In this document: positions 14,486-16,229 of the stretch, in pieces | Numbering within the stretch: the first letter of the stretch is position 1 | Layout of the letters: every line of letters starts with the position of its first letter | NCBI GenBank assembly: GCA_046760225.1 | Contig: JBHIDR010000003.1 | Coordinates: 1-46,537 of the forward strand | DNA from: Candidatus Aenigmatarchaeota archaeon | GTDB lineage: Archaea > Aenigmatarchaeota > Aenigmatarchaeia > Aenigmatarchaeales > JACQIB01 | Direction of reading: 5' to 3' | Length of the DNA stretch: 46,537 nt | Notes under the pieces: generated by a model | The model's input: only the letters and a program-made list of their open reading frames with translations | Told to the model about the DNA's origin: nothing | Databases searched by the model: none | Program-made: the position numbers and the translations under genes

Positions 14486-16229
14486 ATGGCAATTAGATCA
14501 CCTATCGTGGCAACTCTTGGACACTCAATCTGATTGAGCCAAAAATGTTGACCACGGTAAAACAACTCTATTAGATAAAATTAGAGGTACTGCTATCGTA
14601 GCTAAAGAAGCAGGTGGTATAACTCAAAGTGTAGGGGCCACGTTTATACCTGCAGATACAATCAAAAAAATATGTGGTGAACTTCTAGAAAAAATGAAAA
14701 TAAAGATAGATATACCTAGCTTATTGCTAATCGATACGCCTGGGCATGAAGCATTCACATCAATCCGAAAGCGTGGCTCAAGTATTGCAGATTTGGCTAT
14801 ACTTGTTATTGACATAAATGAGGGCTTCAGGCCACAGACAGATGAAAGCCTTGAATTTCTCAAGGAGTTCAAGACACCTTTCCTTGTAGCTGCAACAAAA
14901 ATAGACAGGACGCCTGGCTGGTTCCCTTCTCCAGGAGCATGCTTTTTTGAAAGCATTGAAAAGCAGCCTGAGCATGTTAAGGAGGGGGTTGACAAGGCCA
15001 TCTACACGCTTGTTGGCCAGCTGAGCGAAAGGGGGTTTGATGCTGAAAGGTATGACAGGGTAACTGACTTCACAAAGCAGATAGCAATCATACCATGTTC
15101 TGGAATCACAGGAGAGGGCATACCTGAGGTTCTGATGATGCTTACAGGACTTGCACAGAACTTCTTGAAGGACAAGCTCGAGATCACTGCTGGAAGAGGC
15201 AGGGGCTCTATTCTTGAGATAAAGGAAGCAAGGGGGCTGGGGCTGACTGCAGATATCATTCTTTATGATGGTGAGATAAGGAGGGGTGACTGGATTGTGA
15301 TAGGCGGTATCGAGCCCCTGGCACTGAAGATCAAGGTGCTGCTCAAGCCAAAGCCCCTGAGGGAGATAAGGGTTGAAAAGGAATTTGAACAAGTGGAAAG
15401 TGTGGGTGCTGCTGCAGGTGTAAAGATAGTTGCACCTGGTCTTGAGAAAGCAATAGCAGGTTCACCTATAATTGCTGTAAGAAAGGAAGAAGAGGTAGAG
15501 AAAGTAAAAAAAGAGCTGAAGGAAGAGCTATGCGCTGAATTTGGGGTCTGTGGTGGAGAAGGAGTGCTGCTTAAGGCAGACACACTTGGAAGCGTGGAAG
15601 CGCTCATACATATGCTCAAGCAGAGGAACATAAGCGTCAGGAAAGCTGATGTTGGCCCGCTGAGCAAGAAAGATGTAATTGAGATGGAAACAGTGGCTGA
15701 CAAGTACAAGAGGATAATCTTTCTTTTCAATGTCCCCTTAGGTGCTGATGTTGAACAAGAGGCCAGAAGCAGAGGCATAAAGGTACTAAAGAGCGATGTG
15801 ATATACAAGCTCTTTGAAGAATATGATGAATGGATAGCAGAGCAAAAGGAAAGGGAAAAGCAGGAAAAGCTGTCCAGAATAACAATGCCAGGAAAGATAG
15901 AGCTTCTCAGGGGATTTGTGTTCAGGCAGTCGAATCCAGCAATAGTTGGTGTGGAGGTGCTGGACGGTGTTATAAAATCAGGTGTGCAGCTGCAGAAGAA
16001 GGACGGTACAAAGGTAGGAACAATAAAACAAATACAGGTAGAGAACGTTACTGTGGAAAAAGCAGAAAAGGGGCAGAGGGTGGCTGTTTCAATAGAAGGC
16101 CCCACTGTTGGCAGGCAGATAAGGGAAGGTGATGTGCTGACAACTGTGATAACAAGGGGGGACTTGAAGGTTCTAGAGGAATATGGCCTGCCTGAAGCTG
16201 GGCTGGCAAGGGAAATACTTGGAAAATGA
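14486..16229 (+). CDS. infB: Translation initiation factor aIF5B/IF2; join(14486..14522,14545..16229), 573 aa
   Basis: [26 protein letters not shown] restored on removing 22 nt; EAGGITQ, IDTPGHEAF, TKID. Confidence 0.95.
14523..14544 (+). other. 22-nt BHB-type mRNA intron in infB
   Basis: TTGG AC^A CTCAAT CTG ATTGAG CCAA AA^A: 4-bp central helix TTGG/CCAA, two 3-nt bulges, 6-bp inner stem; in-frame TGA 14531-14533. Confidence 0.9.

Follow-up and report, generated by a model that had tools for sequence, protein, structure and literature searches.

A putative 22-nucleotide bulge-helix-bulge intron in the aIF5B gene of an Aenigmatarchaeota archaeon, and inserts at the same codon in related translation GTPase genes

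An interrupted gene for an essential translation factor

We analysed a stretch of 46,537 nucleotides from a Candidatus Aenigmatarchaeota archaeon (positions 1 to 46,537 of contig JBHIDR010000003.1, assembly GCA_046760225.1; hereafter the window), in which the gene for aIF5B, the archaeal IF-2-type translation initiation GTPase, is interrupted within the histidine codon of its P-loop, or G1 motif. With a probability that we put at roughly 90%, positions 14523 to 14544 are a 22-nucleotide (nt) archaeal bulge-helix-bulge (BHB) intron in the aIF5B pre-mRNA, and very probably the protein can be produced only once tRNA-splicing enzymes have excised this intron and resealed the mRNA. A sequence-only reading of the window had proposed an intron of the EndA type that makes an essential GTPase dependent on splicing, and the comparative evidence supports that proposal: inserts at the same codon in 27 aIF5B genes, covariation within a set of 36 inserts, recovery of the His codon in every one of them, a single aIF5B copy, and genes for both EndA and RtcB. 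From these patterns we infer that cleavage and ligation occur, where the cuts fall and which enzymes are responsible. The gene is laid out as follows.

Positions 14446 to 14453, forward strand: TATA-box-like element TTTAAATA, about 33 nt upstream of the start codon, possibly acting as promoter.
Positions 14486 to 14522, forward strand: aIF5B exon 1, consisting of 12 codons and the first base of the His codon.
Positions 14523 to 14544, forward strand: putative 22-nt BHB intron, comprising the last base of the 5' bulge, the inner hairpin, the 3' strand of the central helix and the first two bases of the 3' bulge, with an in-frame TGA at 14531-33.
Positions 14545 to 16229, forward strand: aIF5B exon 2, consisting of the final two bases of the His codon, 560 codons and a TGA stop.

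The ATG at 14486-88 opens a frame of 15 codons, which closes at the TGA at 14531-33. With the 22 nt from 14523 to 14544 deleted, C14522 and A14545-T14546 together form a His codon, GTT GAC CAC GGT AAA comes next, and the P-loop GH/VDHGKT is thereby recovered in frame with the aIF5B open reading frame (ORF) that ends at 16229. The short ORF, the split His codon and the restored LGHVDHGK frame had all been claimed beforehand, and each is borne out base for base. Downstream, 560 codons can be read from 14547 to 16226 before a stop at 16227-29, and the joined product has 573 residues. The first ATG of this downstream frame, at 14694, opens the 511-residue ORF that had been described as lacking G1, correctly so, as this ATG comes after the motif; after the stop preceding 14547, no in-frame ATG, GTG or TTG occurs before ATG 14694.

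Profile searches point to the same missing N-terminus. The downstream ORF matches the archaeal IF-2 model of NCBIfam, NF003078, with 738.9 bits over profile positions 20-568 of 598, its first residue falling at position 20, and in TIGR00491 the same residue aligns at position 13 of 591. Some 12-19 N-terminal residues are therefore absent, in agreement with the 13 residues that exon 1 and the split codon would contribute. In 28 relatives with an intact gene the protein begins with the conserved motif M-x-(I/L)-R-(Q/S)-P-I-V-x-x-(L/I/V)-G-H, which the exon 1 peptide fits, and the exon 2 protein is 73% identical to a protein from the same genus. Additionally, the string TTTAAATAC also stands upstream of intact aIF5B genes in relatives (e.g. 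at loci L004, L007 and L035; these and the other lettered numbers below are our working handles). Among genome contigs, a search for related loci found a single archaeal relative alongside five bacterial IF-2 genes. An intact infB copy elsewhere had been named as one observation that would overturn the intron proposal; the window's genome (an assembly of 0.85 Mb in 83 contigs, 83% complete) yields a single aIF5B match.

A relaxed bulge-helix-bulge fold

In the minimum free energy (MFE) fold, the insert and its flanks are arranged in the following elements, helix lengths being given in base pairs (bp).

Positions 14503 to 14559, forward strand: exon-exon outer helix of 12 bp, 14503-14514 pairing with 14547-14559 and A14551 bulged.
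Positions 14517 to 14520, forward strand: 5' strand of the central helix, TTGG, in exon 1, paired with CCAA at 14539-42.
Positions 14521 to 14523, forward strand: 5' bulge ACA, unpaired, with the predicted cut at 14522/14523.
Positions 14524 to 14538, forward strand: inner hairpin CTCAAT-CTG-ATTGAG, of 6 bp (14524-29 with 14533-38) and a 3-nt loop.
Positions 14539 to 14542, forward strand: 3' strand of the central helix, CCAA, in the intron.
Positions 14543 to 14545, forward strand: 3' bulge AAA, with the predicted cut at 14544/14545, lying in a 2x4 internal loop (UC opposite AAAU) rather than in a clean 3-nt bulge.

This layout is reproduced by an unconstrained fold of 14500-14565, whose free energy of -22 kcal/mol compares with -9.8 +/- 2.6 kcal/mol for 200 dinucleotide shuffles (z -4.69), none of the 200 being as stable. 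The 6-bp inner stem stacks directly on the central helix, and the 5' splice site is a textbook 3-nt bulge. Every element that the sequence-only reading had picked out (TTGG/CCAA, ACA, AAA and the perfect inner stem) is present in this fold, and its description of the outer helix as imperfect also holds: CAAC at 14511-14 and GTTG at 14547-50 both belong to the outer helix, and in the window's fold no outer helix stacks directly on the 3' AAA. The insert consequently departs from the strict canonical hBHBh' motif and is a BHB only in relaxed form. Cuts after the second base of each bulge (AC/A with AA/A) and cuts after the third (ACA/ with AAA/) give identical mRNA.

Inserts at the same codon across relatives

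Within the order, 28 of the 29 aIF5B loci that we read are uninterrupted, with the form M..R(Q/S)PIV..GH-(V/S/I)D(H/S)GKT, and genome G032, from another family of the same order, is interrupted at the same base by 32 nt, TCGG/CCGA taking the place of TTGG/CCAA. Variant P-loops also occur among intact aIF5B genes of relatives, namely GHVDSGK in G008 and GHSDHGK in G025, G038 and G027 (loci L017, L026, L028 and L029). An apparent split of aIF5B near residue 180 in G003 (L035, contig C14) proved to be a scaffold gap of 10 N and no intron.

The first cases beyond the order came from genes of the class with short open frames. We scanned the 371 genomes of the class with the pattern AAAYRTNGAYCAYGGNAA, which has AAA where the intact gene has NCA before the last base of the His codon; 337 of these genomes yielded an aIF5B match, and in G137 its N-terminus runs off the contig end. 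The scan gave 37 matches in 34 genomes, 36 of them with BHB layout (27 in aIF5B and 9 in the gene for aIF2-gamma) and one unrelated (G343), so that interrupted aIF5B or aIF2-gamma genes are found in at least 33 of the 371 genomes. In aIF2-gamma the insert sits at the homologous His codon, and one of the nine cases lies in the window itself. The distribution is patchy and extends over at least nine families. Single-copy status can be judged in the more complete intron-bearing genomes: G050 (97% complete), G109 (96%), and G059 and G062 (95%) have one aIF5B match each.

The 36 inserts are 18-32 nt long, with 11 different lengths, among which 30 nt is the commonest (15 of 36). Their 5' bulge reads ACA in 34 cases; the invariance of AAA on the other side follows from the construction of the pattern. 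The central helix is TCGG/CCGA in 22 inserts and TTGG/CCAA in six, and contains one wobble or one mismatch in the remaining eight. Across the alignment of all 36 sequences (A1), pairing in the central helix amounts to 96.5%. The second pair of this helix (columns 20-53) is C-G in 28 sequences, U-A in eight and unpaired in none; as the 5' base of this pair is a synonymous third codon position, it is the intron base that tracks the exon base. In the inner helix pairing amounts to 94.7%, and each of the five pairs counted there has changed on both sides among the 36 sequences. The covariation score of 0.393 stands against 0.181 +/- 0.015 for shuffled data (reached by none of 500), a control that overstates covariation because the sequences are related, and against at most 0.162 when the partners are slid by 1-3 columns, a control that, like the many distinct pair types, is independent of kinship.

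In pre-tRNA, the endonuclease cuts between bulge nucleotides 2 and 3, at 37/38. Applied to the inserts, this rule gives CAT 20 times and CAC 16 times, so that the histidine and the reading frame are restored in 36 of 36. An in-frame stop lies within each of the 36 inserts, and in 27 it directly follows the codon at the His position. The length of 20 inserts is divisible by three, and in these the absence of a stop would place extra residues in the P-loop if the RNA stayed unspliced. The stops may thus reflect selection for quick termination on unspliced RNA; shared ancestry of the TTGA, TTAG and GTGA starts is an alternative explanation for their placement.

Splicing enzymes and a proposed route to the mature mRNA

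Two ORFs of the window's genome exceed the cut-off of the EndA family PF01974 in Pfam, at 85 and 66 bits, and both pass the endA model TIGR00324. They lie close together on contig C2, with a nitroreductase-like ORF between them.

L034, 1297 to 1788: EndA subunit gene, 163 residues, matching the N-terminal half of NF006795, the two-repeat model of EndA.
L034, 2329 to 2862: EndA subunit gene, 177 residues, matching the C-terminal half of the same model.

The 163-residue ORF lacks a histidine where 1A79_A has its catalytic one. The 177-residue ORF keeps the tyrosine and the histidine, and its nearest solved chain is 3IEY_A (E 4e-35), which we take to be the Nanoarchaeum equitans enzyme. Such a two-gene arrangement would fit an (alpha-beta)2-like enzyme, a type that the title of Yoshinari 2006, as cited in PMC12397907, ties to relaxed motifs and to cbf5 splicing. 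The ligase RtcB is also encoded (PF01139, 496.8 bits). Run with its intron mode off, ARAGORN reports 11 tRNA genes; switching the mode on raises this to 21, of which 13 contain introns, several at non-canonical positions, the intron calls being rough; these counts are consistent with a lineage in which many RNA genes are interrupted. The tRNA set of the genome looks heavily interrupted or incompletely detected.

Given these components, maturation of the aIF5B mRNA might proceed as follows. A transcript that begins upstream of ATG 14486 would pair exons 1 and 2 into the outer helix, and TTGG of exon 1 with CCAA of the intron into the 4-bp central helix, leaving ACA and AAA unpaired on opposite strands and the 6-bp hairpin of the intron stacked on the central helix. 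EndA, whose two separate subunit genes would suit it to relaxed motifs, would cut between the second and third nucleotide of each bulge, and RtcB would ligate the exons, creating the His codon, an intact P-loop GHVDHGKT and a protein of 573 residues. Unspliced RNA would give only a peptide of 15 residues, because of the stop within the intron.

Weighing the intron against other explanations

Several observations weigh against the intron. A look-up of RNA sequencing runs for positions 14300-19700 of the window listed none, a result that has no bearing on whether the genes are expressed. In both EndA paralogs an alanine is aligned with the first lysine of RKK in 1A79_A and 3IEY_A, presumably the catalytic lysine. 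Because AAA and the exon 2 codons are fixed in the search pattern, these columns are uninformative, and the count of inserts is to be read as a minimum. Across the 36 sequences, pairing in a helix that would adjoin the 3' AAA directly reaches only 36% of cells, and the exact BHB core appears in only 21 of the 36 unconstrained folds, at least three exon-exon pairs being present in 34 of the 36 MFE folds. As the 3' site of the window's insert lies outside a clean 3-nt bulge, the substrate requires a broad-specificity endonuclease; according to the relevant part of PMC5829648, relaxed motifs are cut only by enzymes of this kind. Finally, the genome is only 83% complete, which leaves formal room for a second aIF5B copy in this organism.

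The ribosome might instead skip the 22 nt without any RNA processing, by programmed translational bypass (hopping) of the type found in phage T4 gene 60 and the yeast mitochondrial byps. The Gly-His codon pair, the nearby in-frame stop and the stable hairpin bear a superficial resemblance to hopping sites, and the stop that directly follows the His-position codon in 27 of 36 inserts would suit such a process. However, matching take-off and landing codons are absent: the landing side reads AAY (Asn) in 36 of 36 inserts, AAAY being fixed by the pattern, as against CAY or GGN on the take-off side. Since AAY encodes neither His nor Gly, a hop could not restore GH-VDHGK. Hopping also fails to account for the covarying central helix of 4 bp, which links exon 1 to the insert's 3' end, or for the constant 3-nt spacing of the bulges, and we consider it very improbable.

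The two pieces might also be expressed separately, exon 2 being translated from an internal start without the first Gly-His of the P-loop and perhaps complemented by the 15-residue peptide. Protein genes that are split without RNA joining are known in Nanoarchaeum equitans, and the hairpin could serve as a terminator or regulator. However, the frame offers no start before ATG 14694, whose use deletes G1 entirely, and neither the covariation nor the exact restoration of the His codon in 36 of 36 inserts, whatever their length, is explained in this way. Separate expression is accordingly very unlikely as well.

That aIF5B is a pseudogene, or that the 22 nt arose through an error of sequencing or assembly, could be suspected of an assembly of 83 contigs that is 83% complete, particularly as the apparent split in G003 was a run of N. 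Yet 27 independent assemblies have an insert at the same base, with differing lengths and sequences. The 560-codon exon 2 has stayed open and 73% identical to its same-genus counterpart, exon 1 keeps its conserved peptide and start, and aIF5B is single-copy in near-complete intron-bearing genomes (up to 97%). A disabling lesion or artefact is hardly credible on this evidence. A self-splicing intron of group I or group II is dismissed on size, 22 nt against a ribozyme core of hundreds of nucleotides, and a search of 14300-19700 against Rfam, at E up to 1, gave no match except one chance long non-coding RNA at E 0.99. A BHB intron removed at the RNA level remains the explanation that we favour.

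Other insertions in the same genome

The window contains a second putative BHB intron, at the P-loop His codon of the aIF2-gamma gene.

Positions 19423 to 19480, forward strand: aIF2-gamma exon 1, MTKKIDPRLIPEVNIGTVG and the first base of the His codon.
Positions 19481 to 19511, forward strand: putative BHB intron of 31 nt, with TTGG 19475-78 and CTAA 19506-09, ACA 19479-81 and AAA 19510-12, its BHB core present in the MFE fold.
Positions 19512 to 22522, forward strand: aIF2-gamma exon 2, interrupted after GHVDHGK by an intein of 625 residues (19529-21403).

The matches of this gene in Pfam are Intein_splicing, LAGLIDADG_3, GTP_EFTU and eIF2_C. The intein lies five codons past the intron, so that one P-loop motif holds both an RNA-level and a protein-level insertion.

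A strict genome-wide scan for BHB motifs, which demanded an AAA 3' bulge, at most one G-U pair per helix and a break in the ORF, returned 20 candidates, against 9150 in a looser scan. Four were accepted on the basis of exon peptides and Pfam matches, in aIF5B, rtcB, aEF-2 and a porA-like gene; the strict scan missed the aIF2-gamma intron, which has two G-U pairs, and its yield is thus a lower bound. One further candidate (C6) was rejected, its two flanking ORFs sharing no domain, and in the remaining 15 the exon 1 side looks non-coding or a plausible start follows directly. In rtcB (C35, L057:1330-2837) a 32-nt BHB insert has the layout TAGG, ATT, 7-bp stem, CCTA and AAA, and its removal restores ..GGIG-Y-DINCG.., which suggests that the RtcB ligase would be needed to mature its own mRNA. 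In aEF-2 (C46, L100:600-4378) a 32-nt BHB insert directly follows the P-loop His codon, after an exon 1 of 29 codons, and an intein follows ..HHGK, the P-loop reading IHHGK where IDHGK is usual. In the porA-like gene, for the alpha subunit of a 2-oxoacid:ferredoxin oxidoreductase (C39, L101:148-1309, minus strand), removal of a 31-nt BHB insert joins ..PNFPITPQ to TEIIE.., and the POR_N match starts where exon 2 does, at profile position 20.

Three of the five translation GTPase genes of this 0.85-Mb genome are therefore interrupted, at sites within 2 nt of each other, and two of the three, aIF2-gamma and aEF-2, also carry inteins; two EF-1-alpha-like genes have intact P-loops. Inteins occur in aIF5B as well, after GHVDHGK (..HN/TTLLD) in G006 (L054) and G068 (L055), with open frames of 892 and 872 residues. 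A second insert site in aIF5B, four codons downstream at the Lys codon of GHVDHGK, adjoins this intein insertion point and bears BHB inserts of 18 nt in G081 (L037) and 34 nt in G289 (L092).

Possible mobility and wider significance

A tentative and on balance doubtful idea is that these elements are site-specific mobile BHB mini-introns that home to the P-loop sequence of aIF5B, aIF2-gamma and aEF-2, a sequence that is also the target of intein homing endonucleases. Reverse splicing or gene conversion may carry them from one paralog to another, and they may persist by breaking the endonuclease target (the insert is 13 nt from the intein site) or by tying the translation machinery and RtcB synthesis to the capacity for RNA splicing. 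The interruption of three of five translation GTPases, the inteins in two of them, the Lys-codon site, similarity across genes and the patchy spread over families are hints of such a mobile class and no proof. For some aIF2-gamma introns the nearest neighbour is an aIF5B intron, with identities of the inner part of 0.84 within family f3 (G008g and G032) and 0.88 between families f12 and f15 (G065g and G132), which hints at movement between paralogs in sequences that are short and constrained; the window's own two introns resemble no other intron (at most 0.58).

In this reduced DPANN genome, an essential and universally conserved translation factor very probably relies on the tRNA-splicing machinery, and so, it appears, do two further translation GTPases, the ligase of the splicing pathway and an enzyme of central metabolism. 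Gene callers will shorten such genes or label them pseudogenes, and mRNA splicing in archaea would be far less exceptional than has been supposed. Furthermore, the co-location of intron and intein in the P-loop provides a testable system for the choice of site and the retention of insertions by selfish elements.

Comparison with known systems

The BHB intron of cbf5 pre-mRNA is reportedly the subject of studies by Watanabe in 2002 and Yoshinari in 2006. Like the aIF5B insert, this intron of Desulfurococcales and Sulfolobales combines a BHB-like structure recognised by EndA with a patchy distribution through gain and loss and a hetero-oligomeric endonuclease, as described in Yokobori 2009 (PMC2738675). 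In our case, by contrast, the interrupted genes are aIF5B, aIF2-gamma, aEF-2, rtcB and a porA-like gene, the hosts belong to DPANN archaea of Aenigmatarchaeota type rather than to Crenarchaeota, and the same codon is interrupted in paralogous GTPase genes. Furthermore, cbf5 splicing was shown experimentally, whereas splicing is here deduced from DNA sequence.

Non-canonical introns of archaeal pre-tRNA in relaxed form (HBh' or hBH), removed by EndA of (alpha-beta)2 or epsilon2 type, share with the aIF5B insert the 4-bp central helix, 3-nt bulges of which one is loosened, and the size of a mini-intron, and likewise call for an endonuclease of broad specificity; disrupted tRNA genes abound in DPANN lineages (both from the pertinent parts of Kaneta 2018, PMC5829648). 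The aIF5B insert differs in that its host RNA is an mRNA, its outer helix consists of coding sequence, the reading frame is kept and a stop codon is carried.

In eukaryotes, IRE1/RtcB splicing of XBP1 and HAC1 mRNA, which is mentioned in PMC13149111, acts as a regulated stress switch. Its similarity to the proposed aIF5B splicing lies in independence from the spliceosome, a very short mRNA intron, the pairing of an endonuclease with an RtcB-type ligase, and a change of reading frame without which no functional protein is made. Nuclease and recognition motif (IRE1 stem-loops) are different, and regulation is a feature of XBP1/HAC1.

In the accessible portions of two later papers on the endonuclease (PMC5829648 of 2018 and PMC12397907 of 2025), the cbf5 studies are the sole references for BHB introns in mRNA, and the accessible portions of a 2026 review of non-canonical splicing treat the archaeal BHB for tRNA only (PMC13149111). 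Our full-text literature searches, with subscription-only papers outside their scope, found none that pairs aIF5B with intron or BHB terms and none on BHB introns in DPANN mRNA. Within the literature searched, the aIF5B intron thus appears to be part of a wider pattern that has gone undescribed.

Inteins in the P-loops of archaeal translation GTPases are the protein-level counterpart, being insertions of a self-removing type at the same few codons. Unlike the 22-nt element, which is non-coding, holds a stop and would be removed from RNA, they are in-frame coding sequences with a LAGLIDADG endonuclease and are removed from the protein. The mechanism that we propose for the aIF5B intron corresponds to that demonstrated for the cbf5 pre-mRNA of Crenarchaeota, and the recurrence of inserts at one codon of paralogous GTPases, beside inteins, goes beyond what cbf5 offers.

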